DNA from: Hydrogenophilales bacterium 28-61-23
Lineage (GTDB): Bacteria; Pseudomonadota; Gammaproteobacteria; Burkholderiales; Thiobacillaceae
Length of the DNA: 64,000 nt
Assembly: GCA_002281555.1 (NCBI GenBank)
Contig: NCGJ01000013.1
Coordinates: forward strand, 23,493 to 87,492
Direction: 5' to 3'
Below are positions 8,929 through 64,000 of this stretch, in pieces; the stretch's first letter is position 1, and every line of letters starts with the position of its first letter. The position numbers and the translations under genes were made by a program. The notes beneath the pieces are model-generated. The model was given only the letters and a program-made list of their open reading frames with translations. It searched no databases and was not told the DNA's origin.

Positions 8929-9084
8929 AGCCTTGGCTGCCCCAGGTTGGTCGAACAGACTTACATCGTTTCAAAATCCGGCCGGAATTGTAGGCCAGCC
9001 GGCCCCGCTACCGGATGCCGCCGAGCGCAAGCCGATTCGGGCAAACTTCATGCTCAGGACTCAACCCGCCCCGGAAACCGACCC

Positions 9085-9810: not shown

Positions 9811-9840
9811 GCGGGGCGGGGCGCTGCTCGGCCCCGACCG

Positions 9841-10368: not shown

Positions 10369-10383
10369 GTGGCCTCCTGAAAG

Positions 10384-12064: not shown

Positions 12065-12670
12065 TTACTGCATGGCCTTCATTTTGGCGATTTCTTCGGC
12101 CAGCTCTTCCTGGCCCTTCTTGGCCTTGAATTGCTGCCACAGCGCCTTGTCGTTGTTCATGCTGGTCTTCAGCACTTTCTCGGTAGCCTCTTTGGTGACG
12201 GAAGGATCGAGGCCGACCAGAACGTAGATGGAACCGTTCGGGCTGGTGGCGCTACGGAAAACGCGCGAACCGACGATGGTTTCGGCGGTGATCAGCTTGG
12301 ACACGCTGGTGTTGACCTTGTCCACGGTCTCGGAAGCGGCGGCGCCGGTCGTCTCGACATAGGACTTGATCATGTTGGTGACGTGCACCTTCATCTGCTG
12401 GGCCAGGTTGACGCGCGCGGCGGCGGCGGCCTGGTCTTTCATGAATGCGGTGCCGGCGGCGGATTTTTCATAAGAACCGACCGCGGAAACGGCAACCCCT
12501 TCAACCGGAGCATCGCAAATCCAGAGCGGCGCGGCCTGATTCGGCGAGTCCGGGAAGACGCATTCGGCGATCTTCGCGGGTTCTGGTTTAACGGCGTCCT
12601 TACCGCCAAAGCAACCCGTGAGCGCGACAGCCATAAGGGAAGACAACAATACGATACGTTTTGTGCTCAT
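12065..12670 (-). CDS. LPP20-family lipoprotein
   Basis: The start was re-picked at ATG 12670, which gives MSTKRIVLLSSLMAVALTGC (lipobox LTGC). The body contains APLWICDAPVEGVAVSAVGSYEKSAAG...AAAAARVNLAQQM, which is LPP20-like. Confidence 0.65.
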   Translation of the reverse strand: MSTKRIVLLSSLMAVALTGCFGGKDAVKPEPAKIAECVFPDSPNQAAPLWICDAPVEGVAVSAVGSYEKSAAGTAFMKDQAAAAARVNLAQQMKVHVTNMIKSYVETTGAAASETVDKVNTSVSKLITAETIVGSRVFRSATSPNGSIYVLVGLDPSVTKEATEKVLKTSMNNDKALWQQFKAKKGQEELAEEIAKMKAMQ

Positions 12671-12784
12671 TTTGATCTCCATTGAAAAAACCGAAAAATT
12701 ACCGCGACTTTCATAAGTGTCGAATCCCCGAAAAAACAAGATGACTACAACAGCCGGGGCGCTCTGTTACTGCTCTCTTCTCTA

Positions 12785-13208: not shown

Positions 13209-14240
13209 CTAAAACTGCAATGGTTTCAAAACTTTTTGCCAGAGCGACCCCTTGCGGGTCACTTCAACCAGATCGCCGAGCAGCACGCCCTGAGCCTTGC
13301 GATCGTCGTCCGCAATAATCCACGATTCCATTGCCGTGACGTTGCCGAAGACAACCCCTTCGACGACGGGCACCTTGTCATAAACGGTTTTATTGGTAAT
13401 CGAGTGCAAACTGGGTTTTTGATTAAAAACCGTGACCTTGCTCCCAGCGGTCACGCCCTGGTCGGCACCGATGGATAGTTTGAATATCGACTTGCTTCCC
13501 TTGTCGCGTCTGCCAAGGATGTAACCCTTGTGGGAAAACTGCTCGAGGAACTCGTCGCCGACCTGAGACAAGGCCTTCTGAGCCGCCTCCCGCACCATCG
13601 ACACCGCGAGATCCCTATTGCTGGCTTCTTCGGCCTTGTGAGAATTGGCGCCACGGCCATTCAACGTTTTGATCAGGCGCAAACTTGGCACCTCGTAAAC
13701 CCGCAATACAACGTTCACGCTGGCACTGTGTGAATAACTGGCGGGCGTGGTGACCGTCTTGCCCTTCTTGTTGGTCTGGCTGGTGGCTGGCTTGATTTCC
13801 AGATCGTATTCCGCCTGGGTGATCGCCGGCTTGACCGCGTAGTTGGCTACGGAAGGCCCGTCGTAGCCGGCGACGCCGACCGCCTCGGCCAGTTTCAACT
13901 CGTCCCTGAGTTGATTGGCAAGGTTGCGATCCACCACTTCGATGCCGTTTGTGCCCAGCAACTGTTCGATTTCCCGCATCAAAAAGCTGCCGGCCTGGGC
14001 ATGCCGGGCCTTGCTCAGATTGTTGTCTTCCATATCGAATACCACGACCTTGGCGCGCCCCTGCCTGGCAAGGTCGGCCTCGGTCGGCATGCGGGCGGCG
14101 GAAGCAAGCGTGGCCTCATTGGTGTATTCAGACAGCGAACCGCCCGTGCCTGCGCAACCGCTCAAAACTACCAGACCCGATAGCGCTAGCGCGCGGACAT
14201 GCCGCCCGCACCTGGTTCTTTCCCGCATAATTTTCCCCAT
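13209..14240 (-). CDS. lipoprotein with CsgG/LpoB/FlgO-like (TolB-N-like) domain and C-terminal beta domain
   Basis: The lipobox is ALALSGLVVLSGC. The stretch KVVVFDMEDNN...AGSFLMREIEQLLGTNGIEVVDRNLANQLRDELKLAE...SVNVVLRVYEVPSLRLIKT follows the pattern of CsgG/LpoB-type lipoproteins. The C-terminus is GYILGRRDKGSKSIFKLSIGADQGVTAGSKVTVF...GDLVEV. The start is ambiguous (GTG 14246, ATG 14240, ATG 14228). Confidence 0.55.
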   Translation of the reverse strand: MGKIMRERTRCGRHVRALALSGLVVLSGCAGTGGSLSEYTNEATLASAARMPTEADLARQGRAKVVVFDMEDNNLSKARHAQAGSFLMREIEQLLGTNGIEVVDRNLANQLRDELKLAEAVGVAGYDGPSVANYAVKPAITQAEYDLEIKPATSQTNKKGKTVTTPASYSHSASVNVVLRVYEVPSLRLIKTLNGRGANSHKAEEASNRDLAVSMVREAAQKALSQVGDEFLEQFSHKGYILGRRDKGSKSIFKLSIGADQGVTAGSKVTVFNQKPSLHSITNKTVYDKVPVVEGVVFGNVTAMESWIIADDDRKAQGVLLGDLVEVTRKGSLWQKVLKPLQF

Positions 14241-14255
14241 GGACACATCAACCGA

Positions 14256-15236
14256 TTAATCAGTAAACCCCAAACCCTTGATCGGACCGACATCCCGCAG
14301 TGCCGCACCCAGTTTTTGAGTGGCGCTTTGCCGGGCGCCCGCGTAGTCGTATGAGGAAGACCCGGATACCTCGAAATCGCGACTGGTCACTGCGCGCCCG
14401 TGATCGTCCTGCACGCTCAGCGTGACTTTAAGTTTAACCAACTTGCTGCCATAGATGGCATCGGAGCGGCTGCTGCTGGCGATTGCGAGGACATTGCCCC
14501 TGCCAGAAGCGGTGTTTTCCGTGCGAATGCCATTCTCGTTGAGGAAAGCGGTGATTGCCGCGGCAAGATCGCCATCGCTCGAACCGGCCTGAACCCGGAA
14601 TACCAAATCCGTGGCGGCTTTCTGAGCCTGCTGTTGCAGCGACTCCAGACGACTCAGACGCTCCGCCGATGCGGCACCCGGCTCAAGGCCCGTCAGTAGC
14701 TGAGCATGGCCGGTCGCTTTTTCCAGATTGGGCTGCAAGCGGCGCAGCGCCACGAATTTTTCCAGCGGCGTTTTTTTGCCGAGCTCCGCGGCCGCCGGCT
14801 GGATGAGGCTATCGAGATTGCCCAGCTTCTGCTTGATATCGCGGATAAATGCCTGGCGATCGACTTTGACCAAAGCAAAAAATCCGTTCCCCGATTGAGC
14901 GGTTTTTTCCACCACGAAATTGTTGAATTCCGTTTTTTGCACTTCTTCGGAAATACGGGTGCGCGCCTTGCGATCGACCTTGTTGTTGTCGACGCTGATC
15001 TGGCTTTCGAGTTGCGCGGAAATACTGACCCGCAGCTTGGCGGCGATATCCTTCAACGCGGCGCGCTTCGCCGTGTCGAGATCCGGGCCCTCGCCCACAC
15101 CCCAGAACCATTCCCTGCTGTCGGCCGGTGTCGACAACACCCAGGCCGGGGCCGCGCTGGCCTGTTTCTTCGGCAACAAGCTGTCACAGCCTATGAGCGG
15201 AACGAAAAGTGTCAATAAAATCAATAAGTTACGCAT
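14256..15236 (-). CDS. long LPP20-like lipoprotein (paralogue B)
   Basis: The ORF is 326 aa. It begins MRNLLILLTLFVPLIGC (lipobox) and contains APAWVLSTPADSREWFWGVGEGPDLDTAKRAALKDIAAKLRVSI. Its three-part architecture matches 18554..19549. Its start overlaps the cyclase stop by 8 nt. Confidence 0.6.
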   Translation of the reverse strand: MRNLLILLTLFVPLIGCDSLLPKKQASAAPAWVLSTPADSREWFWGVGEGPDLDTAKRAALKDIAAKLRVSISAQLESQISVDNNKVDRKARTRISEEVQKTEFNNFVVEKTAQSGNGFFALVKVDRQAFIRDIKQKLGNLDSLIQPAAAELGKKTPLEKFVALRRLQPNLEKATGHAQLLTGLEPGAASAERLSRLESLQQQAQKAATDLVFRVQAGSSDGDLAAAITAFLNENGIRTENTASGRGNVLAIASSSRSDAIYGSKLVKLKVTLSVQDDHGRAVTSRDFEVSGSSSYDYAGARQSATQKLGAALRDVGPIKGLGFTD

Positions 15237-17202
15237 TTTTCATGTTTTCCATTGGGTACAGCGAAGCCGGTTGAGTCGATTCGGCGGATCGGGATTCCAG
15301 GATTTTTCCGGTCAAGGGATCGGCCACCATTTTCCAGCACAACTCGTAGACGGGTTGCGCCTGCTCCTTGCCCGCGACCTGCACCTCGCCCAGCGCGCGG
15401 AAAGGTAAAACATCTTTCGCGCGCTGGAATACGGATTCGCCGGCCACGATGTCCACGCCCAATTTTTTAGTCGCGCTTTCAAAACGGGAAGCCAGATTCA
15501 CCACATCGCCGATCGCCGTGTAGTTGAACCGGATCGATGAACCCAGATTGCCGACGATGGCGGGCCCGCAATTGATGCCGATGCCGGTTTTCAGCGGCGC
15601 CGCGCCGACCCGGCCCATCGCCTGGTTGATTCTGAGTTGGGCATACTGCATGGCGATGGCCGCGCGACAGGCGGCTATGGCGTGATCCGGCTGATCCAGC
15701 GGGGCGTTGAACAGGGCCATGATCGCGTCGCCGATGTATTTGTCGAGCGTTCCGCCCTGGTCGAAGATCGCTTCGGTCATCGGCTGAAAATAATCCGCCA
15801 TGATTTCCGCCAGACGCTCTGCCGAGACGCCCTCGGACATCGAGGTAAAACCTCGAATGTCAGAAAACAGCACGGTAATTTCCTTCTTTTCCCCGCCCAG
15901 TTTGAGTTGTTCTGGATTCTCGACAATCCGGCTGACCAGACTGGGCGGCAGGTAGGTTGAAAACGCCGTGCGCAGTTTTTCGGCGTGCTTCTTGGAGTGC
16001 GACAACAAGCTGGTTTCAATCAGCATCGCCGAAGCGGCAAGCGCGGTCAGCACATAGGCGCTTTCCAGCCACACGCCGGCCTGGACATAGAGCAGGAGCC
16101 CTGCGGAATAGGCGACGACGGCCAAACCGGCATAGAGCGCGGCGCGCAGCCATATCCGACGAATACGCATGATGGCGAGGGCGGCGGCCAAAGCCAGAAA
16201 AATGACGCCCGCCATCGAGACAACGCCCAGTTCCTGCAATCCATGCCCGCCCAGCACATTGGCCATGAAGGTCGCGTGCATCAGCGGGCCGGGATACTGC
16301 CCAAGCGGCGTCGCGCGGATGTCGGAAACGCCGGCCTCGGTGATGCCGAACAACACCACTTTGCCTTTCAGGCTGGCCGGGCTGAAACCGGGCGCGAACA
16401 AATCGGCAAATGAGATCGTGTGAAAGCTCGACTCGGGGTAAAAGTTCAAGCGGGTGAACCCGCGCGCGTCGAGATGTACCAGGTCGTCGCCAATAGTCAG
16501 CCGCGCAGCGGCCGAAATCGGCCCATTGCCGCGTTGCAGACGGGCTTGGCTATCCAGAAAGACCTGCAGCGTCTGCACGCCCAGGCTGGGTTGCACCATG
16601 CCAAGCAAGACAAAGCCGGCGGGGTAATGGCGAAACCGTTCATCCTTGTCCGCCAAGGTGTTCAGGGAACCCAATGCGGCTTGTCCGGCAAGGATGTCCG
16701 GAATCGAGAGTTCCACTTCGTCCTTGACCTCGACCAGACCCACATTATGGCTATCGGTCAGGCTCGAATTGGCCAGCAGCGCCATGCCGGCGGCATCGGG
16801 TGTCACCGGACGAATGCCGTTCATCTGGTAACCGCCGATGACGGTCGTCCGCGCGAGCATTTCTCCCAGCGCCCGGTCTTCCGCCGAGTCTGTCGGTTCG
16901 GAGAACACCATATCCAGCGCAATGACCTTGGCCTCGCGACACTTGTCGATGGCGGCCGCCATCCTGAGTCGCGACCAGGGCCAGCGGCCGAAGCTTTTGA
17001 CCGCCTTGTGGTCGACGGCGATGAAGACGATGTCCCGGTTCGGCGAATGCGGATTAAAGCGATAGTAGGTATCGCTGACCGCGCTGGCCAATGCGGCGAC
17101 CGGACCGGGTTGCCAATAAAACAACAGCGTCAGCAATAGCCCCAGCGTGGCGATTGCGCCGGTAAGGTTCAGGTATTCGCTGCGTGCAAGAAGCTGGGGC
17201 AT
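15229..17202 (-). CDS. CHASE2 sensor domain-containing class III adenylate/guanylate cyclase
   Basis: It has a periplasmic CHASE2 signature (IVFIAVDHKAVKSFGRWPWSRLRMAAAIDKCREAKVIALDMVFSEPT). Three TM helices follow. The cyclase domain reads ITVLFSDIRGFTSMSE...DKYIGDAIMALFNAP...GINCGPAIVGNLGS..FNYTAIGDVVNLASRFE. The track start 17211 is TTG, so ATG 17202 was chosen. Confidence 0.9.
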   Translation of the reverse strand: MPQLLARSEYLNLTGAIATLGLLLTLLFYWQPGPVAALASAVSDTYYRFNPHSPNRDIVFIAVDHKAVKSFGRWPWSRLRMAAAIDKCREAKVIALDMVFSEPTDSAEDRALGEMLARTTVIGGYQMNGIRPVTPDAAGMALLANSSLTDSHNVGLVEVKDEVELSIPDILAGQAALGSLNTLADKDERFRHYPAGFVLLGMVQPSLGVQTLQVFLDSQARLQRGNGPISAAARLTIGDDLVHLDARGFTRLNFYPESSFHTISFADLFAPGFSPASLKGKVVLFGITEAGVSDIRATPLGQYPGPLMHATFMANVLGGHGLQELGVVSMAGVIFLALAAALAIMRIRRIWLRAALYAGLAVVAYSAGLLLYVQAGVWLESAYVLTALAASAMLIETSLLSHSKKHAEKLRTAFSTYLPPSLVSRIVENPEQLKLGGEKKEITVLFSDIRGFTSMSEGVSAERLAEIMADYFQPMTEAIFDQGGTLDKYIGDAIMALFNAPLDQPDHAIAACRAAIAMQYAQLRINQAMGRVGAAPLKTGIGINCGPAIVGNLGSSIRFNYTAIGDVVNLASRFESATKKLGVDIVAGESVFQRAKDVLPFRALGEVQVAGKEQAQPVYELCWKMVADPLTGKILESRSAESTQPASLYPMENMKNA

Positions 17203-17278
17203 TCCGCGCAAGTCACTCGTCTATGGCCGATGGACAAGGGCTCGGCATCAGCGCAAGCCTTGTGGCGCACTCAACCTG

Positions 17279-18025
17279 TTATTGTTTGCCTTGCCAGTCG
17301 ATCAGGGACTTCATCGCCTTGGCGCTCTCGCCGCTGATATTGCGCTCCACGGCAACCCGGCCGGTCGTGACCAATTCCTTGCCCGCTTCCAGTACCAGGT
17401 TTTCCACATAATCGACAAACTCGCGTTCCACCTGGGCCTTGTACTGGTCGAATGCCGCCTGTTCGCCCGCGATGGCCTCGGCTTTTTTGCGCACGAGATC
17501 CTCGAACTCATCCCTCTCGGATTGCTGGGCGACCGGCTTTTCACGATACAACTCGACCGGGCCCTGCGTGCTGGCGATATCGACAGAGCCCTGGTCCAGA
17601 ACCACGCTGACGCTGTCTTTATCGTCTTCCACCAGGAAACGCGTGCCTTTTACGCCGATAACCGACAACCGTGTTTTGATCTCGACTCCGGCTGCGGCCT
17701 TGCTCTTGCGTACCTCAAACAGCGCCTGGCCTTTGTCCAAAGCGGTTTTTCCCACGCCGTTGAAGGCGGCCACGCTGAACTTGTCGATTGCAACCGAATA
17801 ACGGCCATCGTTGAGCAGGGCGCGGCCTTCGAAGGTGTGCACCTCATCGCCCGCGCAAAGCGCTCGGGGTAGGGCGCCCGGACTGGTTTTCAACACCTTT
17901 CCGCTCGGTTTGATGCTGACCTGGCCTTCAAATGCCACCATCTTGGCCACCGAGGCGCAACTGGCAAAAACATGGCCGGAAACGCAACATGCCAACGATA
18001 CAAACAAGAGTTTCACTAAACGCAT
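17279..18025 (-). CDS. FecR-domain periplasmic protein (partner of the CHASE2 cyclase)
   Basis: ATG 18025 gives the signal peptide MRLVKLLFVSLACCVSGHVFA. The FecR pattern is present (VAFEGQVSIKP...GDEVHTFEGRALL...RLSVIGVKGTRFLVE). There is no N-terminal anti-sigma domain. Confidence 0.8.
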   Translation of the reverse strand: MRLVKLLFVSLACCVSGHVFASCASVAKMVAFEGQVSIKPSGKVLKTSPGALPRALCAGDEVHTFEGRALLNDGRYSVAIDKFSVAAFNGVGKTALDKGQALFEVRKSKAAAGVEIKTRLSVIGVKGTRFLVEDDKDSVSVVLDQGSVDIASTQGPVELYREKPVAQQSERDEFEDLVRKKAEAIAGEQAAFDQYKAQVEREFVDYVENLVLEAGKELVTTGRVAVERNISGESAKAMKSLIDWQGKQ

Positions 18026-18164
18026 GGATGGCACCCCCGAGAGCTTGTCGTGGAAATTCTAAACCACGCAAGCGGTGTGGCTTTAACTGTAATCCGGCCT
18101 CTATCCGTCTGCGCTTCCCAACCGGGATGCAAGGGTTGCGAAGCCCATGCTGGTTTTATGCGGG

Positions 18165-18553: not shown

Positions 18554-19549
18554 TCAACTCGTGGCGAATTCGATGATCGTGGTTTTGAGTTCACGCTTGA
18601 ACAATTTCTCGGCCTCGATCAGCACACGCGAGCGAGCGGTCCGCGCGCTTTGCCCGGCGGCCTTCAGCGGCCAGGTTTTACTGCCGCGAACACGCCCGGA
18701 CGCTTTCTCGATCAGCGAGATTTCAAGCGTCCCGCGCATCCAGTTCCAGTTATCGCGCCGGCCCAAATCGTCGAGATTCAATTTGCCGACCAGAACGAAA
18801 TCCGCATTCGCTCCGCCTTGCGCCAGAAACCCGGCGGCGGACAGTCCGCCTTTGAGGATGGCGGCAAACTCCGCGACACCGCCATCGTCCGCGACTTCGG
18901 GCAATACCTTGATGGCCTTGATGGCGTCATCGAGCTGAGCGCGTATTTCGACCTGCGCTATGGGCGCTTCGACGCCGCGCCCGGTCTGGTCGATGGCCTT
19001 GAGGGAAGCCTGAAATCCATCGCGATTGACCGCCGATTCCATCGCGCGCGCCAGCGCGCCAATTTTGAGCAGGGGGTCGGCGGCCGCTTTGGCCTTGTCG
19101 AATTCCAGTTGCACCGCCGCGTCGATCTTGCCGATTTCATCTTGCAGACTCGCGGCAGCCTGTGAACGCGACAACACGGCCAGGGCATGGAAATCCTTGG
19201 ATTCTGGATCGCGCCAGACATCGGCGATATTGATGCCGCTGATGACCTTGTCGGTCGTGGTGGATACATCCTGAGTCGAGGTTTTGCTGACCTGCTCCTT
19301 GCCGCCGGTTTTCGTTACCGTGGTATTGGTTCCGGTTGCCACCTCGACACGCACTTCAAAGATCGTGACCAGATCTCCGCGCGCCCGATCCTGAGCCTCG
19401 TTCGCCGTCGAGCCGACGCCACGACCGATCAGATAGGAAGAATGGGGATATTTCTTGGGCGCGTTGCCGACCCAGTCGGGCGGCGCGGCAAGGGCAAGGC
19501 TGTTTCCCGCCAGCGCCACGACAAACATCATCAGCTTCAAGTACCGCAT
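18554..19549 (-). CDS. long LPP20-like exported protein (paralogue A)
   Basis: The ORF is 331 aa with signal peptide MRYLKLMMFVVALAGNSLALA. It contains PPDWVGNAPKKYPHSSYLIGRGVGSTANEAQDRARGDLVTIFEVRV, then a helical middle part, then a C-terminal domain similar in layout to 14256..15236. Confidence 0.6.
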   Translation of the reverse strand: MRYLKLMMFVVALAGNSLALAAPPDWVGNAPKKYPHSSYLIGRGVGSTANEAQDRARGDLVTIFEVRVEVATGTNTTVTKTGGKEQVSKTSTQDVSTTTDKVISGINIADVWRDPESKDFHALAVLSRSQAAASLQDEIGKIDAAVQLEFDKAKAAADPLLKIGALARAMESAVNRDGFQASLKAIDQTGRGVEAPIAQVEIRAQLDDAIKAIKVLPEVADDGGVAEFAAILKGGLSAAGFLAQGGANADFVLVGKLNLDDLGRRDNWNWMRGTLEISLIEKASGRVRGSKTWPLKAAGQSARTARSRVLIEAEKLFKRELKTTIIEFATS

Positions 19550-19595: not shown

Positions 19596-20990
19596 TCACA
19601 AGTAGTAGTCGGAAAGGAAGGTCTTGCGCGCAGCGTCGACCCGAACGCCTTTGAACTCGCGCGTGGACAACAGATTGCCGTTGACGCCGTAATAGGACAC
19701 TTTCAGGTCATGCGTCCCGGGCGGCAGAGCCAGCCGCGCCAACTGGATGTTGCCAGGCAATAACGACCAGCTGCGCGTGTCGGCTCGCTCCGTCAAGGTC
19801 GCCGTAATGTCCATGATCGTGCCCATGGACATCCTCAGCATGCTGGCCAGGTCGCCGGTGTTCTGCTTTGCCGCCTGCTCACTCCTTTTCTTTGCATCGG
19901 CGGTAAGCTTGTTCTTGGCAACCAGGCGAACCAGCGCCCGGGTCTGTATTCCAGGCAGCCTGGCTTCGAGGCTTTTTTTGGCCAGGCCGTTAACATCTTC
20001 CGCGACCTCGGAATTCGTCGACTGGCCGCCGCTGGAGAGCTCGAAGCGCATAACGGGCAGCGGCCGTTCGACAAACTTTGGCAGCGCGATGCGCAGCAGG
20101 GAGGTTCCTTGCCCCGGCACGGGATTGGGCACCTGAATCAGGTTTTCGGCCAATGAAGGGCCCAGCCCATTGTGCAGAAAGAAAACCACCTCGCCGTTCG
20201 CTTCCGCCAAGGCGGCTGTCGCATCGGGCGTCGAGTCGGCTTTCGACCGGCTTCGTTTGGATGATTTGCTTCGGCTCGGCGTTTTGCCTTCGACGCGGGC
20301 CAGATCGGCCCGCAACGCCGAGGGCGCGCCACAGTTGGTGAACTTGCTTTGGCTTTGATAGCCCTCCAAAGCCTTGGTGAATTCGATGCGCGCGGAATCC
20401 GGCTCGCCGACAGCCTCGTAAATCATGCCATTCAGATAACGAACAAAAGCGCCGGAAATAAACTTGGCTTCCGGATACTTTTCCGTAATCAAGCGTTGCT
20501 TGATGTCGAACTGCCTGGCTTCCACCGCCGCCGCGTCAAAGTCGTTCAACTGAAGGTAGTTGAGCGCTTTGAAACCATAAAGCAGCAATTGCTCGTTGGC
20601 GTCGCCGGTATAGGCTTTGACGCCTTCATTGATCAGGGCGCTGCCAGCCTGCTCAGCCACACTGATCGCTTCCAGTTTGTCGATCAGGCTCTTGGCCGTG
20701 TCGAATTCAGTATTCGACTTTGAGTAATCGGCCTGAAGGCGTAGCAGCATGCCGCGATTCAGATACTTCAGCGTTTCATCCGTTTTCGCCAGGTCTGTCG
20801 CATGGAATTGATCCAGCGCCTTGATGGCGCCGGGAATGTTTCGTATCGCGGCTTGCTGTTCGATCGAACGGAAACCTTCGCTGTGGGTGGCGCATCCTTG
20901 CATGCCAAGCACGGCGACCAGCGCCAGCAGGCCGACAAAAAGCCCGCCCGCGCGCGCCGGTTGCCGACGATCAGAACCGAAGTTTTGCAT
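19596..20990 (-). CDS. TPR-like lipoprotein, COG3014-like
   Basis: The ORF is 464 aa with lipobox VLGMQGC. It contains LKYLNRGMLLRLQADYSKSNTEFDTA...LLLYGFKALNYLQLNDFDAAAVEARQFD... This recalls the uncharacterised COG3014 lipoproteins that I remember as neighbours of lpoB/ycfL-type genes. That is memory only and needs an HMM check. The start overlaps the lpoB stop by 20 nt. Confidence 0.5.
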   Translation of the reverse strand: MQNFGSDRRQPARAGGLFVGLLALVAVLGMQGCATHSEGFRSIEQQAAIRNIPGAIKALDQFHATDLAKTDETLKYLNRGMLLRLQADYSKSNTEFDTAKSLIDKLEAISVAEQAGSALINEGVKAYTGDANEQLLLYGFKALNYLQLNDFDAAAVEARQFDIKQRLITEKYPEAKFISGAFVRYLNGMIYEAVGEPDSARIEFTKALEGYQSQSKFTNCGAPSALRADLARVEGKTPSRSKSSKRSRSKADSTPDATAALAEANGEVVFFLHNGLGPSLAENLIQVPNPVPGQGTSLLRIALPKFVERPLPVMRFELSSGGQSTNSEVAEDVNGLAKKSLEARLPGIQTRALVRLVAKNKLTADAKKRSEQAAKQNTGDLASMLRMSMGTIMDITATLTERADTRSWSLLPGNIQLARLALPPGTHDLKVSYYGVNGNLLSTREFKGVRVDAARKTFLSDYYL

Positions 20991-21576
20991 TCTGGACTTC
21001 TTTCTTCAGTTTCTTCTGACCGGTCCATACCTTTTCGTTGTTGGCCAGGCTGACCAGCGTCAGGTCAACCTGATAGAAGCGGACTTGCTCGCGGCCGGCG
21101 GCATCGATGATGGTGTTGATCGACCCCATCAACATGTAATCGGCGCCGGTCTCCTGCCCCATTGCCTTGCGTGTTTCTTCGCGCACATTGGTGTCCATAT
21201 CCAAGCGTTCACCGCGCAGGCCCTCGCGCTCATTCTTCGAGGCGACGACCCGGACGTCGCCGGAGTTGACGAACGCACGCTCCAGGTCGTTCACAAACGT
21301 GCGCGTGTTGATGTGTTCGTGCGACAGATTCCGGATGCTGCCCACGATGACCACAGGTTCATTCTTGGAGTTTTTCAGATGCCGCTTGAGCCAACCGCCG
21401 GAAAGCGAATCGCGGATCATCTCTTCCGAAACCAGTCTCGAATCCGTGTCGTTCCAGGCTCCGGACAAGTCTTTCACTTCTTCGACACCGACCCGCTTCA
21501 CCTGAGTTGCGCACCCCGTCAAACCTGCCGCGGACAGGGCGGCTACCAAAACCAAGACATGATATTTTTTTGACAT
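20971..21576 (-). CDS. lpoB: penicillin-binding protein activator LpoB-like lipoprotein
   Basis: The ORF is 201 aa with lipobox AAGLTGC. The sequence DLSGAWNDTDSRLVSEEMIRDSL...PVVIVGSIRNLSHEHINTRTFVNDLERAFVNSGDVRVVA...GADYMLMGSINTIID...YQVDLTLVSLANNEKVW matches the short LpoB (YcfM/COG3417) family as I remember it. Confidence 0.75.
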   Translation of the reverse strand: MSKKYHVLVLVAALSAAGLTGCATQVKRVGVEEVKDLSGAWNDTDSRLVSEEMIRDSLSGGWLKRHLKNSKNEPVVIVGSIRNLSHEHINTRTFVNDLERAFVNSGDVRVVASKNEREGLRGERLDMDTNVREETRKAMGQETGADYMLMGSINTIIDAAGREQVRFYQVDLTLVSLANNEKVWTGQKKLKKEVQNAKLRF

Positions 21577-58238: not shown

Positions 58239-58889
58239 TCATACCAACTCGGGAATCGCCACATTGCCGACCAGCAAGCGCTGCACTGATACGCCTTCGA
58301 GATTCAAGGCCTGATGGGTCGTCGCGACGACCATGCCGCCACCGGTCAGATGCTCCCGGATCAGCCCTTCCATCAGCGCGACCGCGTGCACATCGAGGCC
58401 GGTCAAGGGTTCGTCCAATATCCACAAGGCCGCGCCCGCCAGCAACAACGCGGCCAGCGCGACGCGGCGACGCTGGCCGAAAGACAACACGCGACAGGGT
58501 AAATCCAGGCAGCGGTTCAAGCCGAGACGCTCCAGCGTGGCGACGGCGCGCGCCTGATCGAAGGCGCGGCCGTGCAGGCCATCGGCAAAACGCAGGTTTT
58601 CGACTGGATTGAGATCGTCCTTGACGCCATTGGCGTGGCCCAGGTAACACATTTCAGCATGGTAGGCCTCGCCGATACGTCGGATCGACTCGCCACGCCA
58701 GCGAACTTCACCGTCTTCCGGTCGGGCCAGTCCAGTCAGCAAACGCAACAAACTGGTTTTGCCCTGGCCATTGCCGCCTTGCACCAGCAGCAACTGGCCC
58801 TGGCACAAGCTGAAATTCATGCCTTTGAACAGCAGCCGTTCGCCACGGGCGCAGGCAAGGTCATGAACGGAAAGGAGGGCGTCGGGCAT
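58239..58889 (-). CDS. ccmA: heme exporter ATP-binding protein CcmA
   Basis: The ORF is 216 aa with Walker A (GGNGQGKTSLL), an ABC signature (LSFGQRRR) and Walker B (LWILDEP). Confidence 0.93.
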   Translation of the reverse strand: MPDALLSVHDLACARGERLLFKGMNFSLCQGQLLLVQGGNGQGKTSLLRLLTGLARPEDGEVRWRGESIRRIGEAYHAEMCYLGHANGVKDDLNPVENLRFADGLHGRAFDQARAVATLERLGLNRCLDLPCRVLSFGQRRRVALAALLLAGAALWILDEPLTGLDVHAVALMEGLIREHLTGGGMVVATTHQALNLEGVSVQRLLVGNVAIPELV

Positions 58890-59012
58890 GGCGGGGGAAA
58901 TCGGGGGGCGAGCGAGGATACTCGCAAAGCACCGCCGGAGAATACGTCGACGATCAAGAAATCAGCGCTTGCCCGAGCATCTCCGGCTGGCCCGGCGTGC
59001 TCGGGCCAGGTC

Positions 59013-59966
59013 TTACTTCAGGACAAAAGCCACTTTGGCGGAGGCGAGGAAGTTGCTCTTCTGGTCAGCCAGGAAAATGCGCATGACGTCTTCATCGCTG
59101 ACATTCAGATCGGCCATCGTCTTCAGGCCGGTGGCCTTGACCACCATCGGCATTTTCGCGCCACGCGCTTCCAGCGCGGCACGCGCCTTCTCGACGGTGT
59201 TGGTGTATTCGCCCGCGCCTTGCTCGACCAGGATTTTCTGGCTGACTTTGGACGGGTCGTAGAGCGCTTCGCCCTTGCTGGAGAAAATTCGATTGATCAG
59301 CGCGGGTTGAAAGCCGAGTTCACGCGCATCGATGATCAGGCCATCGTGCGGTTCGATCGGCGCGGCCGCTGTGGCCACCGGAGCGGCCGCTGGCGCGGCT
59401 GCGACCGGCATCGGGCTGGGCAGGGTGTACGCGACGGCCTTCAATAAAGCGCGGCCCGGCGCGGCATTGATGTAGTTGTTGTACATGGCTTCAGCGACGC
59501 CATCCGCCCCGCGCACGCCGATCTGCATGAACACCACGGCGGTGCCGTCGACCGGATTCCATTCTTCATGCACTTTGCGCGCGCCCTTGATCAGGCCGCT
59601 GACCGCGGTTTTGACGACTTCGCTCTCGAGCGAGCAGTCGCGCACGGTGGTCTGGCCGGAAACATAGACGCCATTGATGATTTCAGCCAGGCGACGATAG
59701 GCAGTGATTTCCGCCGCGCGGATCGCGGTCAGTTTCTGACGCGCCGGCGAGCCGCCGGCCATCGGCAAACCCTGGCCGACCACCAGAATGTAACCATCGG
59801 TCAGCGCTTCCTGAGGCGAATCGGTCAGATCCAGATTGCGTTTTTCCATCCAGGTTTTGCCCTGATCGAAATCTCCGGACACGATTCGGTCGGCGCTGGC
59901 TGGCGAAATGGCGGAAAGCAGAGAAACAAGCGCGCCGATCACGGCGGATGTCTTAACGGTATTCAT
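59013..59966 (-). CDS. exported LPP20/FlgP-like protein with extra C-terminal domain
   Basis: The ORF is 317 aa with signal peptide MNTVKTSAVIGALVSLLSAISPASA. It contains LVVGQGLPMAGGSPARQKLTAIRAAEITAYRRLAEIINGVYVSGQTTV, which is the LPP20 pattern. A P/A-rich linker leads to a domain beginning GLIIDARELGFQPALINRIFS. Confidence 0.6.
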   Translation of the reverse strand: MNTVKTSAVIGALVSLLSAISPASADRIVSGDFDQGKTWMEKRNLDLTDSPQEALTDGYILVVGQGLPMAGGSPARQKLTAIRAAEITAYRRLAEIINGVYVSGQTTVRDCSLESEVVKTAVSGLIKGARKVHEEWNPVDGTAVVFMQIGVRGADGVAEAMYNNYINAAPGRALLKAVAYTLPSPMPVAAAPAAAPVATAAAPIEPHDGLIIDARELGFQPALINRIFSSKGEALYDPSKVSQKILVEQGAGEYTNTVEKARAALEARGAKMPMVVKATGLKTMADLNVSDEDVMRIFLADQKSNFLASAKVAFVLK

Positions 59967-60194
59967 GGTTCAGGGCCCCAATGCGATAACTGATATTGGT
60001 AAACTGCCAGCAGGTTAAACAATTAACTCAAGCATGGAAAATCTGGCGGGGTGATTTTGCTTCGTTTTGTTTCGGGCGGTGGATCAGATTCACTGCAAAG
60101 GTTATCCAATCTCGTGGGATTGTCGTACATGAATTCTCGAACTCCCGCCGCAAGCGTGGCTGACTTGCATCCGATATTGAGGCATCTCCGGGCT

Positions 60195-62609
60195 ATGTCC
60201 GCTCGATGCCGCCGGAAATTGTCGAGTATTCCAGTCCAGGCCGGCATGGGCGGGCTGCTGTTTTTTACCCTGACCTCGTTTGCCGCGGCCGCGGACGAAG
60301 GTGGCTTCGATTTCATCTCCCCCTCGGCGCCCAAGGGCACGCTATCGCCAGACGCCGCCGCGCGGCCCGCCGAGATGCCGGCGGAATCGCTGCCACGCAC
60401 CATAGCCATACTGCCATTCGAAAATGCCACCGCCGAGCCCGGCATTGCCGAAGAAATTCGGCGCGCTTTTTATAACCAGTTCAGCTCGAAGCCATTCAGC
60501 GACATCGAGCTTTCCGCCATCGATGCCAAGTTGCTGGCGCTGGATCGAGGCGCTCAGCCGGGCTCCGCTGAAAAGGCGATTGCCGATTACCGGCCGTTAT
60601 GTCTATCGCTTGGTTGCGATGGCGTGATTACCGGGCGTGTCGTCGATTACAACAAGATTTATGCCGGCCTGTATTCGCAATTCTCGGTCACCGCTGAAAT
60701 CAATCTGATCAATGCCAACACAGGTGCGCTGGTGCTGACGCGAAAAGAACGCGTGACCTTCCGTGAAGGCGGTTTGAGCCTGTCGCCGATCGGCCTGGCG
60801 ATCGCCGCCATGTCCGCCGCGTTGAACCTGCGCGATATTCAGCGCGTCCGCCTGGTCAGTGAACTCGGCTATGTCATCGCCAAGTCGATTCCCAATCCGA
60901 CCGGTGTCGCCGCCATCAGCGGCCCGCGCATAGAGGGCATGCTGTCAAACGCGTCCGAGTCGCCATTCGGTCTGGGCAAGACGATCAGCGTCGCCATCCA
61001 GGCCGACAGCAACGGTTCGGCCGTATTCGATATCGGCAATTACCGCCGCGCATTGCCGATGATCGAGAAAACGCCGGGCGTTTATGTCGGCGAATATCAG
61101 GTTCAGGATGGCGACGCGGTGCGTCAGGCACCGATAGTCGCCACGCTACGCGGACGCAACGGACTGGTTTCCAGTTGGTATGACACCAGTCTGGTCAACA
61201 TCGACAGTCAGCCGCCAGCTCCGCCAGCCCGACTCAGCGCGCGTTCCCAGCCGGGCAAAGTGTTGTTGCAGTGGGACGCGCTGAGCCAGGTTTCCGATCT
61301 GGCCGGTTATCAGGTTCTGCGCTCCTCGCAGCCTTTGGCCGGGTTCAAGCCGTTGGGCGTGGTCGATACGCCCGGTTTTGTCGATACCGACGCCAGCGAC
61401 GATCAGTACCGCTACTACCGCGTGATCGCGCTCGATCACGCGGGCAATGCTTCCGAGCCGGGCCCGATCGCGCGCGGCCGCGTGCTGAATGAACATGGCA
61501 TGACCTTGAGCGGTCGCATCGACGCGGAGCGCGAACTCGGCGGCAACGTGCACGTTACCGCCGACCTGCTGGTTCCCGCCGGTGTCACGCTGCAACTTGC
61601 GCCGGGTACCCGGATGAGCTTCGCGCCGTCCGTTGTGCTGACCATACAGGGCGGGCTGGTGTCGGACAGCCGCGATGAGGCGGTCGAGTTTGTCGCGCAT
61701 GGCGGCGGGGCGTGGGGCGGCATCAAGGTCGAAGGCGGCAATATCGGCCTGCGCGGCTTCAATCTCTCCGGCGCGACGACCGGCATCCATCTGCAACGCG
61801 GCCAGGGAATACTCGAAGCCGGCCAGATTCAGAAATGCGATACCGGCTTGCTGGTTACCGGAACCGGCAGCGCCAGCGCGCGCGAATTGAAAATCAGCGA
61901 AAACCGCATTGGCGCGCGGCTGGATGCCAGCGATGCCGAACTGACCCAGAACCGCATCGCCAACAACGATATCGGCGTCGAATTGAACAAATTTACCGGT
62001 GTGCTGCGCGACAACGCCATTTTCCAGAACAGGCTGAATCTGCGCGCTGAAGCCGGCACGCTGCTGGAAGCCAACTACTGGGGCAGCCTCGACCCGGCCG
62101 CGCTGCGCATCGAGGGCGGCATCGTCAGCGAAGCGCTGAACCGGCCGGCGCCCGAAGGCAAAACGGTAGCCTTGCGCGTCAGTCCCTGCGCGGGTTTGTC
62201 CGACGAGGCCTGCCAGCAAAAATCGGCCGAAGCCATGATCGAGGGCGGTCGGCTGTTCCGCGCGAAAAATTATGGCCGCGCGCTGACTCAGTTTGAAACC
62301 TCGATTGCCGCCCGGCCCAGCGCCGATGCTTATTACTTCGCGGCGATTTGCCACCAGGAAATGCGGGAAGAAGAACCCGCCTTGATTCGTCTGCGCGAGG
62401 GTATCGCGGCCTTCCCGGCGGACCCTTCTCTGCGCCGGGCGCTTGGCATGCTGTATCTTCAACGCGGCGACGAAACGCTTGCGCGCGAACATCTGCGCGA
62501 GGCGGTGCGACTTTCACCCAACGACCGCCAGGCGGCATTCGTATTGGAACGCTTGGGTGGCACAACGCGTGGCGACAAGTCGAGCGAAAAAACAGGAACT
62601 CAACCATGA
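60195..62609 (+). CDS. large exported multidomain protein: LpoB/CsgG/GNA1162-like domain + Ig-like + FN3 + right-handed beta-helix (PbH1 repeats) + TPR
   Basis: ATG 60195 gives MSARCRRKLSSIPVQAGMGGLLFFTLTSFAAAA; alternative starts are 60051 (GTG) and 60129.
- About 60393-60905: TIAILPFENATAEPGIAEEIRRAFYNQFSS...CDGVITGRVVDY...FSVTAEINLINANTGALV, the LPF-x-N lipoprotein-fold pattern.
- About 61206-61475: an FN3-like stretch (GKVLLQWDA...AGYQVLRS...YRYYRVIALDHAGNASEPG).
- About 61533-62150: beta-helix repeats (ISENRIGARLDASDAELTQNRIANNDIGVELN...).
- About 62223-62555: TPR. Confidence 0.7.
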   Translation: MSARCRRKLSSIPVQAGMGGLLFFTLTSFAAAADEGGFDFISPSAPKGTLSPDAAARPAEMPAESLPRTIAILPFENATAEPGIAEEIRRAFYNQFSSKPFSDIELSAIDAKLLALDRGAQPGSAEKAIADYRPLCLSLGCDGVITGRVVDYNKIYAGLYSQFSVTAEINLINANTGALVLTRKERVTFREGGLSLSPIGLAIAAMSAALNLRDIQRVRLVSELGYVIAKSIPNPTGVAAISGPRIEGMLSNASESPFGLGKTISVAIQADSNGSAVFDIGNYRRALPMIEKTPGVYVGEYQVQDGDAVRQAPIVATLRGRNGLVSSWYDTSLVNIDSQPPAPPARLSARSQPGKVLLQWDALSQVSDLAGYQVLRSSQPLAGFKPLGVVDTPGFVDTDASDDQYRYYRVIALDHAGNASEPGPIARGRVLNEHGMTLSGRIDAERELGGNVHVTADLLVPAGVTLQLAPGTRMSFAPSVVLTIQGGLVSDSRDEAVEFVAHGGGAWGGIKVEGGNIGLRGFNLSGATTGIHLQRGQGILEAGQIQKCDTGLLVTGTGSASARELKISENRIGARLDASDAELTQNRIANNDIGVELNKFTGVLRDNAIFQNRLNLRAEAGTLLEANYWGSLDPAALRIEGGIVSEALNRPAPEGKTVALRVSPCAGLSDEACQQKSAEAMIEGGRLFRAKNYGRALTQFETSIAARPSADAYYFAAICHQEMREEEPALIRLREGIAAFPADPSLRRALGMLYLQRGDETLAREHLREAVRLSPNDRQAAFVLERLGGTTRGDKSSEKTGTQP

Positions 62610-63691
62610 ATCTTTGCGCGTTGCCGAATCCGATGGTTCCAAGATCGCCGGGTCGCGCGATTGCTTCGATACTGCTCGGTCTGGCGTTGTTGTCGCCGCT
62701 GGCGGTCCGCGCGGACGATATCGTGCTGGGTCTGACCAAAGGGGACGTGCAAGTGCTCACGGCGGGGCGCGCGCAACCGGTTCCGGTTCGCAAGGGGCAA
62801 GCGCTGCGTAGCGGCGACCGCGTCTACACCGGTGGCGATGGCTGGACCGTCATGCTGATGCCGGACGGCAGCCGGGTCGTGTTGACGGCCAATTCGGAAT
62901 TCATGGTGCGCTCGCACGACGCAAAACGTCGGAAAGGCACGTTCGCTCTGCTCGGCGGCATGTTGCGCGCCATCATCTCGGCTTCGTCCGTCTCGCCAGC
63001 CAATTACCGTTTCAACACCTTGACCGCTGTCGCCGGCGTGCGTGGCACCGATTTCTCGATGATCAACCGGGGGCAGGCCAACGTTTTCTTCGGCAACAAC
63101 GGCAAGGTCGAGGTGCAAGGACTCAATACCGCCATTCGCCCACTGACCGCGGCTACCGTGGTGCAAACCACGCGAGGCGAACTGCCGACGCAGCCTATTT
63201 CCGTTGAGCCGAATTCCCGCCTGGCGGAAGCACAGACGCTGCTCAACGCGGTCACCGAGCAAGCGCCGGCCTCCTGGGTCGAGGCGGGAAAATTGCCTGA
63301 AATTGTCGCGCGCTGGAATATCACCTATAGCCGCTACCTGGCCGATGCCGGTCGCCATGACGAGGCGCTGCATGTTTTGCAGGTGGCTTTGGATTTGACC
63401 GACGCGGTGGAAATTCAGGTCGATGCGCGCCTTGAGCGCGGTGCCGTCTTGAGTCGGGACCCGGGCGGCGCCAATGCGGCCTTGAAAGAATATGAAAAAG
63501 TGCTCGATAGCCCGGTCGTGGGGCCGCAGCGTGAGACCGCGCTGTACATGATGGGGATGGGGTATTTTCAACTCAAGCAACCCGTCGAGGCGCAATCTCG
63601 TCTGCGCCAGTATCTGAGCGACTATCCGGAAGGGCGCTACAAGGAACGGGTCGAGACCTTGCTGCGCACCATCAAAGGTGTTGCGCCTTGA
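62606..63691 (+). CDS. FecR-domain exported protein with C-terminal TPR/YbgF-like region
   Basis: ATG 62606 overlaps the upstream stop as ATGA. It has a signal peptide (AIASILLGLALLSPLAVRA) and the FecR pattern (GDVQVLTAG...GDRVYTGGDGWTVMLMPDGSRVVLTANS...LTAVAGVRGTDFSM). TPR-like helices form the C-terminus. Confidence 0.75.
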   Translation: MNLCALPNPMVPRSPGRAIASILLGLALLSPLAVRADDIVLGLTKGDVQVLTAGRAQPVPVRKGQALRSGDRVYTGGDGWTVMLMPDGSRVVLTANSEFMVRSHDAKRRKGTFALLGGMLRAIISASSVSPANYRFNTLTAVAGVRGTDFSMINRGQANVFFGNNGKVEVQGLNTAIRPLTAATVVQTTRGELPTQPISVEPNSRLAEAQTLLNAVTEQAPASWVEAGKLPEIVARWNITYSRYLADAGRHDEALHVLQVALDLTDAVEIQVDARLERGAVLSRDPGGANAALKEYEKVLDSPVVGPQRETALYMMGMGYFQLKQPVEAQSRLRQYLSDYPEGRYKERVETLLRTIKGVAP

Positions 63692-63783
63692 TCGATTCCA
63701 CTACGCACGATGACCACCTCATACGCTTATCTAAACTCGGCTCATCAACATCAGCCGCGCGGTTGAATTTCCTTGGAGTGACC

Positions 63784-64000
63784 ATGCGTTATCTATTTCC
63801 CGCCAGCTTGCTTTGCATTTTTGCCTGGTCTGGAGCGGCCCAATGCGCCCCGGATGCGAAAGAGCAGCCTTTTCTCACCGAGGCGGAAGGCAGCGCCTGC
63901 ATGGGCGACGACAAATCCCGCAAACACACTGAAGAAGTGGCCCGGGATGAGGCCAAGCGCCGCGCCGCCGAACAGGCCGCGACGCAAGTCCGGGCGCAGA
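63784..64000 (+). CDS. exported protein, N-terminal fragment (runs off right edge), LPP20-like start
   Basis: It is not in the track because it has no stop in the window. GGAG lies 5 nt before ATG 63784. The translation is MRYLFPASLLCIFAWSGAAQCAPDAKEQPFLTEAEGSACMGDDKSRKHTEEVARDEAKRRAAEQAATQVRAQ... Confidence 0.45.
   Translation, partial: MRYLFPASLLCIFAWSGAAQCAPDAKEQPFLTEAEGSACMGDDKSRKHTEEVARDEAKRRAAEQAATQVRAQ

Follow-up and report, generated by a model that had tools for sequence, protein, structure and literature searches.

An exported FlgP/LPP20-type, GNA1162-like and FecR protein module beside the ccm operon of Hydrogenophilales bacterium 28-61-23 and its possible connection to CHASE2 receptors

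Background

The present study deals with five genes of Hydrogenophilales bacterium 28-61-23 and with the question of which function can be assigned to a set of proteins that are all exported and contain no recognisable catalytic domain. The genes were noticed in a stretch of 64,000 nucleotides (assembly GCA_002281555.1, contig NCGJ01000013.1, positions 23,493 to 87,492), henceforth called the window, in which the region 59013-64000 contains gene A on the minus strand and, divergent from it, the beginning of the plus-strand gene row B-C-D-E. A preliminary description, made from the letters of the window alone, had pointed out that FecR, LPP20 and LpoB-type proteins occur twice within 64 kb, once together with a cyclase (locus 1) and once together with a large beta-helix/TPR protein (locus 2, the region of genes A to E), and had taken this recurrence as an argument for a functional relationship between the families rather than chance adjacency.

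CHASE2 domains stand at the head of cyclases and kinases and, in cyanobacteria, also of caspases, and the Pfam entry of the domain states that its signal is unknown. The signal sensed by CHASE2 domains is likewise described as unknown in the literature (PMC5192318). Genes encoding FecR-domain proteins, tetratricopeptide repeat (TPR) proteins and phosphodiesterases cluster with a CHASE2 adenylate cyclase gene in Campylobacterota (PMC9239204), and the BiofilmReg operon of Burkholderia combines a LysM-FecR gene with a CHASE2 histidine kinase gene (PMC5192318). Exported proteins that travel with CHASE2 genes across phyla, such as the FecR-TPR, FlgP-like and GNA1162-like proteins described here, are concrete and testable candidates for the input side of these receptors.

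Results

Gene order and conservation of the module

The divergent gene pair just beyond the ccm operon was verified with respect to open reading frames (ORFs) and coordinates (Table 1). The ccmABCDE genes are located directly to the left of gene A on the same strand, with A on the upstream side. Gene B (maximal ORF 60051-62609) opens the plus-strand row and is followed by C, which extends to 63691, and by a fourth ORF that starts at 63784 and is truncated by the window edge. Extension of the locus to the right, which the preliminary description had proposed, was accomplished with the 13.6-kb contig L001 (GCA_027312245.1), found by an exact-match look-up of C and identical to the window. Beyond position 64000 this contig carries the rest of D, then E and then a convergent gene for an NrfA-like cytochrome c552; no polysaccharide or adhesin system of known type was found there. 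All five products (A to E) possess signal peptides, and neither a membrane-spanning segment joined to a cytoplasmic part nor a recognisable catalytic domain is present in any of them.

The complete gene order A|B-C-D-E is present at 53-58% identity in locus L005 (GCA_002360535.1), which has a different genomic context without adjacent ccm genes. The module is furthermore syntenic, including the c552 and ccm flanks, in the closer relatives L036 and L037, the latter without B. The divergent pairing of A and B thus recurs in L005 and L036, and on this sequence context A is counted as a member of the module rather than of the ccm operon. In L037, whose A protein is 69% identical, genes A, C, D and E are syntenic at 8559-10915, and the gap between C and A measures only about 290 bp.

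Proteins A and D and their relationship to FlgP

The minus-strand product had been described as an exported LPP20-like protein, an assignment that is right for the FlgP/LPP20 superfamily and falls short of the Pfam cut-off. The LPP20 model (PF02169) scored 14.0 bits on A (E-value 0.071; gathering score 25.9 bits) and was matched at an E-value of 0.1 or below by seven of 14 members of the A family, at best with 9.6e-6. A sequence search of the PDB detected the solved FlgP proteins of Campylobacter jejuni (9hmf_C, E-value 1.9e-9) and Vibrio (8z5n_2, 2.2e-7), and the A-family profile matched the same chains with E-values of 5.6e-21 and 2.7e-11. Residues 50-138 of A align to residues 60-149 of FlgP (IPR024952; PDB 9hmf, 8z5n, 9yds) with a single one-residue gap near position 67 (GQGL-PM / GEGIAPM). 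FlgP, Lpp20 of Helicobacter pylori and FlgT_N share a common SHS2-like fold, and the presence of an insert behind the helix is correlated with the formation of rings (PMC12222027). This ring-building beta-hairpin insert of FlgP, which separates the second strand from the SHS2 helix, is kept in A without any gap across the VKVNGKDTVKDAMLRSSTITAQVNG segment. Unlike FlgP, protein A is encoded outside flagellar gene clusters and has FecR, GNA1162-like and CHASE2 genes as neighbours. It also differs in its N-terminus, as the sequence ...LLSAISPASADRIV lacks a Cys and hence a lipobox and resembles a signal peptidase I site, and in the possession of an additional C-terminal domain.

This second domain connects A with the protein Tp0624 of Treponema pallidum, the syphilis bacterium. 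The A-family profile matched residues 127-261 of 5jir_B, i.e. the D2 domain, with an E-value of 4e-14, and a Foldseek search with the AlphaFold2 (AF2) model of A (predicted local distance difference test score, pLDDT, 70) aligned 288 columns with 5jir_A (E-value 2.2e-7), thereby spanning the D1-D2 tandem of Tp0624. The OmpA-like third domain of Tp0624 is missing in A. The tandem was described as previously uncharacterised (PMC5104382), and the locus now provides this orphan domain pair with a genomic context. The A family comprises at least 480 homologue clusters, all of them either without a name or labelled 'LPP20 lipoprotein'.

The fourth gene had been noted for an LPP20-like start, which is correct at the superfamily level. 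Full-length D (338 amino acids; L001 8550-9566) consists of a signal peptide, an SHS2 domain of the FlgP/FlgT_N type and, as judged by eye from the sequence, helical repeats with a YP.S motif followed by an SH3-like segment. Its FlgT_N match has an E-value of 3.7e-4, its comparison with FlgP in the PDB one of 0.005, and hhalign aligned the N-terminal domains of D and A with a probability of 96.8% (E-value 2.5e-10).

Domain architecture of protein B

Three starts come into consideration for gene B, namely 60051 (maximal ORF, 852 amino acids), 60195 (804) and 60246 (787, the NCBI annotation). The ATG at 60195 (MSARCRRKLSS...) results in a canonical signal peptide and the start at 60246 drops its positively charged n-region, so that translation of B likely begins at 60195, from which all residues are counted here. 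By the likely and the annotated start, the product that had been introduced as a fusion of more than 800 amino acids has about 787-804 residues and not the 852 of the maximal ORF. An AF2 model (mean pLDDT 79) yielded the domain order listed in Table 1, and Foldseek supported the GNA1162-like, FN3 and beta-helix assignments. Of the architecture originally proposed, the GNA1162-like, immunoglobulin (Ig)/FN3, beta-helix and TPR regions were recovered and the LpoB label was not. For the locus as a whole, the earlier domain calls were borne out by hidden Markov model, PDB-profile and structure searches, in part with scores below the Pfam cut-offs.

The N-terminal domain scored 13.3 bits with the Pfam model GNA1162-like (PF05643; E-value 0.063, gathering score 25.9 bits), and a match to LptE was likewise sub-threshold (0.006). 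Its profile matched residues 10-150 of GNA1162 of Neisseria meningitidis (4hrv_A) with an E-value of 5.3e-5, and the Foldseek comparison of the model with 4hrv gave an E-value of 2.2e-6 and a target-normalised TM-score (template modelling score) of 0.69; further Foldseek matches in the PDB were FlgT (3w1e) and the Vibrio LPHT-ring chain 8z5n_0. PF05643 is also part of the precomputed annotation of the distant B homologues P0026, P0031-P0034, P0036 and P0038. The likeness to GNA1162, seen in profile and fold over residues ~62-210, takes in the ILPF.N strand at the N-terminus and the hydrophobic helix at the C-terminus, and the motif LPR..AILPF.N.T (IAILPFENAT in the window) is invariant in the B family, which shows in addition a conserved Cys pair in this domain. 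GNA1162 is a stand-alone lipoprotein (the crystallised chain has 167 residues), whereas in B the domain is fused to Ig, FN3, beta-helix and TPR parts and lacks a lipobox, the N-terminus ...TSFAAAADEGG of the window protein being devoid of Cys; Nitrospirota orthologues possess a lipobox (...LFSCAPS, ...LASCVPA). GNA1162-type genes usually accompany CsgG-like and DUF4810 genes, neither of which is visible at locus 2. LpoB (PF13036) gave no match for B, and hhalign of the N-terminal profile against the LpoB protein of the window, an insensitive comparison with a single-sequence template, returned a probability of 0.3%. Because B does not match the window's own LpoB, it is designated GNA1162-like here and is LpoB-like at the level of the fold at most.

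The FN3 domain was detected by PDB profile matches (E-value 2.6e-8) and by Foldseek matches to the FN3 domains of titin and cytokine receptors. In the following region, the Pfam domain NosD scored 29.1 bits against a cut-off of 23.6 (E-value 8.5e-7) and the NosD family model TIGR04247 only 17 bits against the required 300, so that B contains a NosD-type beta-helix and is not a NosD orthologue. Foldseek related this beta-helix to polygalacturonase and pectate lyase. In an alignment of 18 B homologues (38-77% identity), the invariant columns of the beta-helix are restricted to Gly, Asn and Trp, and Asp, Glu, His, Lys and Arg do not occur among them; in the absence of such acidic or basic residues the domain is probably non-catalytic and would serve in binding or as a scaffold. 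The C-terminal region matched TPR_16 (E-value 1.1e-8), TPR_2, also above its cut-off, and TPR structures in the PDB.

Proteins C and E

Genes B and C overlap in the tetranucleotide ATGA at 62606-62609, where the ATG of C occupies 62606-62608 and the TGA of B 62607-62609. This overlap and the FecR domain with a TPR tail, both noted before, were verified; the Pfam model FecR (PF04773) scored 44.3 bits on C (E-value 2.4e-11; gathering score 24). The cleavable signal peptide of C leads straight into this bona fide FecR domain. An anti-sigma domain and a transmembrane helix are missing, and no gene for an extracytoplasmic function (ECF) sigma factor or a TonB-dependent receptor is located near C in L001. 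For these reasons, C is regarded as a soluble periplasmic FecR-domain protein and not as a FecR anti-sigma factor. Weak matches to the Leptospira FecR lipoproteins Lsa33 (E-value 3e-6) and LipL45 (1.5e-5) had scores far under the family cut-offs. In L015, the gene for a homologue of C (E-value 7e-76) immediately precedes that for a CHASE2 cyclase. In Magnetospirillum, mtxA precedes a CHASE2 cyclase gene (PMC4439547); a relationship between C and MtxA was rejected, as no MtxA chain appeared among the PDB matches of C at an E-value of 1 or below.

The lipoprotein E comprises, as seen by eye, about four similar beta-rich repeats with weak Ig-like matches and a tail of about 200 residues that consists almost entirely of Gly-rich GG.GG(N/D/K) motifs (weak match to Collagen, E-value 0.006). 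No Pfam family above cut-off and no NCBIfam or PDB match was obtained for E, and PDB sequence searches with D, E and the 345-amino-acid protein of locus 1 gave nothing meaningful. Beyond the window contig, E was seen only in the betaproteobacterial versions of the module (L005, L036 and L037).

By sequence, the parts of the module are members or relatives of known families, i.e. FlgP/LPP20, GNA1162-like, FecR, NosD-type beta-helix, TPR and Tp0624 D1-D2. In public annotation the module proteins carry no labels other than hypothetical, 'tetratricopeptide repeat protein' or 'LPP20 lipoprotein', and no account of families A, B, D and E or of their association came up in the literature searches.

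Comparison with locus 1

Locus 1 (9.8-21.6 kb) contains, as the preliminary description had stated, FecR, LPP20 and LpoB-type proteins together with a cyclase; the census amounts to two FecR, three LPP20, one LpoB and one TPR protein besides the CHASE2 cyclase. The pairwise comparison with locus 2 that had been suggested was performed by all-against-all phmmer and revealed clear similarity of the FecR domains only (E-value 3.6e-6), the alignments of A with D and of A with LPP20 being marginal and in register. With the A-family profile nothing was found in the 331-amino-acid LPP20 protein of locus 1, an insensitive comparison with a single-sequence template, and this protein also had no PDB sequence match. 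Since only the FecR domains are clearly similar, the recurrence between the loci is one of superfamilies and not of duplicated genes; the view of locus 2 as a recent duplicate of locus 1 was rejected on the same grounds. What had been described as FecR, LPP20 and the LpoB fold occurring twice in 64 kb is therefore upheld for the superfamilies and has to be given up with regard to recent paralogy and to an LpoB identity in locus 2.

Several other proteins of locus 1 deserve mention. Homologues of its 224-amino-acid LPP20 protein and of its 345-amino-acid lipoprotein, each detected by phmmer in two B loci, adjoin B or A homologues in L007, L020, L016 and L032; those of the lipoprotein (E-values 2e-4 and 3e-9) are encoded a few kb from A/B homologues in the Nitrospirota loci L016 and L032. 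The FecR-domain protein at the locus edge (9085-9810), the closest locus-1 protein to C, has a twin-arginine-like signal RRNLLKLLAAGALAGLG, and the other FecR proteins of the window have Sec-type signals. In the C-terminal part of the 556-amino-acid protein, a Cys...His...Asp arrangement can be seen by eye (YSDCEDR ... GHMTT ... IADPT); phmmer gave no match between this protein and the transglutaminase-like proteins encoded downstream of Nitrospirota B genes.

Table 1. Coordinates of genes, domains and intergenic features of locus 2 and locus 1 (window positions unless stated otherwise)
Feature	Position	Strand	Basis or remark
Gene A, 317 amino acids, exported	59013..59966	-	ORF; signal peptide ...SPASA/D
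A residues ~50-155, FlgP/LPP20-type (SHS2-like) domain	59502..59819	-	FlgP structure matches
A residues ~205-317, domain homologous to Tp0624 D2	59016..59354	-	family profile vs 5jir_B
A-B divergent intergenic region	59967..60194	.	presumed promoters
Gene B, 804 amino acids, likely start ATG 60195	60195..62609	+	signal peptide ~residues 1-33
B residues 1-59, signal peptide and disordered linker	from 60195	+	AF2 model
B residues 62-231, GNA1162-like (DUF799) alpha/beta domain, long hydrophobic helix at end	60378..60887	+	profile and Foldseek
B residues 246-414, two beta-sandwiches, Ig-like (246-337) then FN3 (348-414)	60930..61436	+	AF2, PDB, Foldseek
B residues 426-650, right-handed parallel beta-helix, NosD/CASH type	61470..62144	+	Pfam NosD, Foldseek
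B residues 670-791, TPR domain	62202..62567	+	Pfam TPR_16, PDB, AF2 helices
Gene C, 361 amino acids	62606..63691	+	signal peptide, FecR, TPR tail
C residues 71-160, FecR domain	62816-63085	+	Pfam FecR
C residues ~234-346, TPR tail	63305-63643	+	Pfam
Gene D, window part	63784..64000	+	cut by window edge
Gene E, 637-amino-acid lipoprotein	L001:9639-11552 = window 64873-66786 (beyond edge)	+	lipobox LIAGC
Locus 1, FecR-domain protein at locus edge	9085-9810	+	FecR E-value 0.0025
Locus 1, 556-amino-acid protein	10384-12054	-	weak Transglut_core, E-value 0.077 (below threshold)
Locus 1, LPP20 proteins	12065-12739, 14256-15236, 18554-19549	-	part of locus 1
Locus 1, 345-amino-acid lipoprotein	13209-14246	-	no Pfam or PDB match
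Locus 1, CHASE2 adenylate/guanylate cyclase	15229-17211	-	CHASE2 E-value 1.8e-41, Guanylate_cyc 1.9e-21
Locus 1, FecR-domain gene directly upstream of cyclase	17279-18034	-	FecR E-value 4.3e-9
Locus 1, TPR protein	19596-20990	-	part of locus 1
Locus 1, LpoB	20971-21576	-	PF13036 E-value 7.5e-38

Gene neighbourhoods in other genomes

When one genome per GTDB species was considered, relatives of B occurred only in metagenome-assembled genomes of Nitrospirota, Desulfobacterota, Syntrophorhabdaceae, Nitrospinota and Gammaproteobacteria. Among the best 150 matches of the full-B profile in the representative library, which are dominated by giant FN3 and beta-helix repeat proteins, only about 55 are true relatives with the full architecture. 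The neighbourhoods of 18 independent B loci from Nitrospirota, Desulfobacterota, Gammaproteobacteria and Betaproteobacteria were analyzed by a Pfam census of the 152 neighbour proteins encoded within 6 kb of B and, separately, by phmmer comparison of the window proteins with all ORFs of the loci. At least ten of the 18 loci have genes of the A family within 10 kb of B (three paralogues apiece in the case of L022 and L023), and seven have CHASE2 or Guanylate_cyc genes within 6 kb of B. The raw counts among the 152 neighbour proteins amount to seven for Guanylate_cyc, six each for CHASE2, Transglut_core and Peptidase_C14 (caspases), at least six for DUF4384, at least five for LPP20, three for SLT, at least two for FecR and two for SLH. 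Flg, Fli and Mot families were found neither among the 25 most frequent Pfam families of each of two neighbour sets (152 proteins in all) nor in L001, L005 and L036.

The gene order in individual loci is instructive. The 772-kb Nitrospirota contig L015 carries, in this order, genes for an SLH/TPR protein, A, B, a transglutaminase-like protein, a FecR-TPR protein, a CHASE2 cyclase and a histidine kinase, those from the SLH/TPR protein through the cyclase all on one strand, and in L003 B is followed by genes for a transglutaminase-like and a cyclic nucleotide monophosphate (cNMP)-binding protein. A homologue of A is also present in the cultured Thermodesulfovibrio yellowstonii DSM 11347 (L035, CP001147.1: 1824719-1845645), which might offer a related system that is amenable to experiments. 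Its long same-strand gene row encodes, in this order, a Crp-type cNMP regulator, an SLH protein, A, SIMPL, a 1056-amino-acid TPR-CHAT protease, several TPR and PDZ proteins and DUF4384.

The co-occurrence of the families in other genomes, on which the preliminary description had made its claim depend, was found among the 18 loci from several phyla. Because FecR, LPP20 and GNA1162-like families occur together elsewhere, the sequence data support a functional relationship between FecR, LPP20-type and GNA1162-type genes rather than chance adjacency.

Discussion

A possible input module for CHASE2 receptors

Proteins A to E may assemble in the periplasm into a scaffold that is attached to the outer membrane and would serve CHASE2 receptors as an accessory input module, be it as a sensor or as an adaptor. 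We put this reading forward tentatively, prefer it to the alternatives given below and consider it quite possible. It is suggested by the extracytoplasmic and non-enzymatic nature of all the proteins together with their FlgP-type, ring-forming pedigree, by the design of B (GNA1162-type domain, spacers, beta-helix and TPRs) and the adaptor-like FecR-TPR design of C, and by the recurrent linkage to genes for CHASE2 cyclases and cNMP-binding proteins. The receptor in this genome would most plausibly be the CHASE2 cyclase of locus 1, the sole candidate output partner for the locus-2 proteins that is visible in the window; this cyclase gene has a FecR gene directly upstream and is surrounded by LPP20, LpoB and TPR genes. 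The position of the A homologue of T. yellowstonii two genes downstream of the Crp-type cNMP-binding regulator is in agreement with such a role. According to this model, A, with or without D, would oligomerise under the outer membrane, the beta-helix and TPR part of B would point to the cell wall or to a ligand such as a glycan, and C would connect the complex to the periplasmic CHASE2 domain via its FecR or its TPR domain, so that a change of the envelope or a bound ligand would alter the synthesis of cAMP or cGMP.

The published FecR-CHASE2 clusters resemble this arrangement in that FecR/TPR proteins are encoded beside CHASE2 receptors, as in locus 1 of the window and at the C homologue of L015. 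These clusters were not reported to hold members of the A, B, D or E families, and locus 2 is without a CHASE2 gene of its own. The association of FecR/TPR with CHASE2 is accordingly already known, and the new elements are the A/B/D/E module and its composition resembling flagellar rings. With the Vibrio H-ring (FlgO, FlgP, FlgT; 3w1e) the module shares a common fold set, i.e. the SHS2 fold, represented by A and D, and the alpha/beta lipoprotein domain, represented by B; the likeness is restricted to the fold or superfamily level, as the flagellar context is missing and architectures and partners differ. The FlgP, FlgT and GNA1162 folds of flagellar outer-membrane rings are used together in a non-flagellar setting.

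A number of observations weigh against the proposed input function. No CHASE2 gene is present in the 13.6 kb of L001, nor in L005, L036 and L037, which makes the link to a cyclase indirect in this clade, the cyclase gene of the window being 43 kb away, and 11 of the 18 B loci have no cyclase gene within 6 kb of B. The neighbour counts were moreover obtained without a matched background control, and cyclases are no more frequent among the neighbours than caspases or transglutaminase-like proteins, so that the module may serve several kinds of envelope effectors and not cyclases in particular. The absence of B from L037 indicates that this protein is dispensable or was lost in some lineages and is not obligatory. 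Finally, a CRP-like TGTGA-N6-TCACA palindrome with up to two mismatches was not found in 59967-60250, and the count of such sites across the window is below the chance expectation; control of locus 2 by cAMP-CRP was rejected for want of a site in that interval.

A more specific version, which we consider unlikely, holds that A, D and B form a non-flagellar ring or lattice under the outer membrane that is itself the 'ligand' of CHASE2 receptors; cyclases and, elsewhere, caspase-like or transglutaminase-like effectors would then read its mechanical or structural state via FecR-TPR adaptors instead of sensing a small molecule.

Alternative explanations

The lack of an output domain in five exported proteins would fit a self-contained structural element of the envelope without any signalling function, comparable to the H-ring or basal disk but outside flagella, or to tethers of the Tp0624/OmpA type. 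Oligomers of A and D would again lie beneath the outer membrane, with B and E as spacers that set the distance between outer membrane and wall or stabilise the outer membrane. The match of A to the D1-D2 tandem of Tp0624, for which a role in stabilising the envelope was proposed, the nature of FlgP, FlgO and FlgT as membrane-anchoring scaffolds, the betaproteobacterial loci without a nearby cyclase and the recurrence of the cell-wall proteins SLH, SLT and MltC_N as neighbours are consistent with this explanation. For a purely structural element, however, one would not expect genes for CHASE2 cyclases, cNMP-binding proteins and histidine kinases to be neighbours as repeatedly as they are, and FecR domains are otherwise known from signalling contexts. 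We regard a purely structural role as somewhat unlikely.

A further explanation starts from the frequency of Transglut_core, Peptidase_C14 and DUF4384 among the neighbour proteins and sees in the module a platform that regulates extracytoplasmic cysteine peptidases (transglutaminase-like or caspase/CHAT) or presents their substrates, in an envelope stress or programmed-death-type pathway with CHASE2 cyclases as one of several outputs. The transglutaminase-like genes directly downstream of B in L003 and L015 and, in T. yellowstonii, the TPR-CHAT gene that comes second after that of the A homologue fit this idea, as does the 556-amino-acid protein of locus 1 with its weak, sub-threshold Transglut_core match and the Cys...His...Asp arrangement seen by eye. 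Locus 2 and its betaproteobacterial relatives contain no peptidase gene, and neither a substrate nor a cleavage site is evident. Such a platform appears to be an unlikely function of the module.

It is highly unlikely that the module is a machine by which an adhesin or a surface polymer is exported or processed. In such a machine, B would contribute a beta-helix that acts as a glycan hydrolase or lyase, a TPR domain comparable to those of PgaA, BcsC or AlgK and, with its GNA1162/CsgG-type domain, the outer-membrane part, and E would be the secreted glycine-rich product. The beta-helix shares its fold with polygalacturonase and pectate lyase but has none of the invariant Asp, Glu, His, Lys or Arg residues; the TPR matches to PgaA, BcsC and AlgK models are weak and far under the family cut-offs; and E, a large lipoprotein built from Ig-like repeats and ending in glycine-rich sequence, would fit such a product, but D and E are restricted to the betaproteobacterial version. 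Moreover, no gene for a glycosyltransferase, a polymerase, an outer-membrane beta-barrel or an ABC (ATP-binding cassette) or type I secretion system was found at any of the loci.

An accessory function in cytochrome c maturation or nitrite reduction, to which the order c552, E, D, C, B | A, ccmA-H in the window and L036 (and, without B, in L037) might point, is extremely improbable and largely refuted by L005 with its complete module without nearby ccm or nrf genes; A and B are not linked to ccm or nrf in the Nitrospirota or Desulfobacterota loci, and the synteny, confined to close relatives (A 69-100% identical), is most simply explained by shared ancestry. An anti-phage defence system was rejected as well, as PADLOC returned a single spurious match of 14.8 bits.

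Flanking regions and sequence signals of locus 2

In the intergenic region between A and B no sigma-70-like promoters above chance were detected, and a promoter and terminator scan of 58800-64000 gave counts equal to the shuffle level. Within B and C, long antisense ORFs of up to 448 amino acids are present, e.g. 61146-62492 on the minus strand. These ORFs have no counterpart gene call in the public contig and show the Arg/Ala/Gly-rich composition typical of antisense frames in high-GC DNA, for which reasons they are treated as spurious.

The NrfA-like c552 gene, convergent to the module in the betaproteobacterial clade, encodes a multihaem protein of 573-620 amino acids (L001:11701-13422, minus strand; L036:1128-2990), and in L036 and L037 a flavocytochrome c sulfide dehydrogenase-like gene is located on its far side. 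At the opposite end of the locus, between A and ccmA, a perfect 9-bp GC-rich stem, CTGGCCCGG...CGGGCCAG, is found at 58987-59009, 4 nt past the stop codon of A and without a T-run; this stem may separate A from the ccm transcript.

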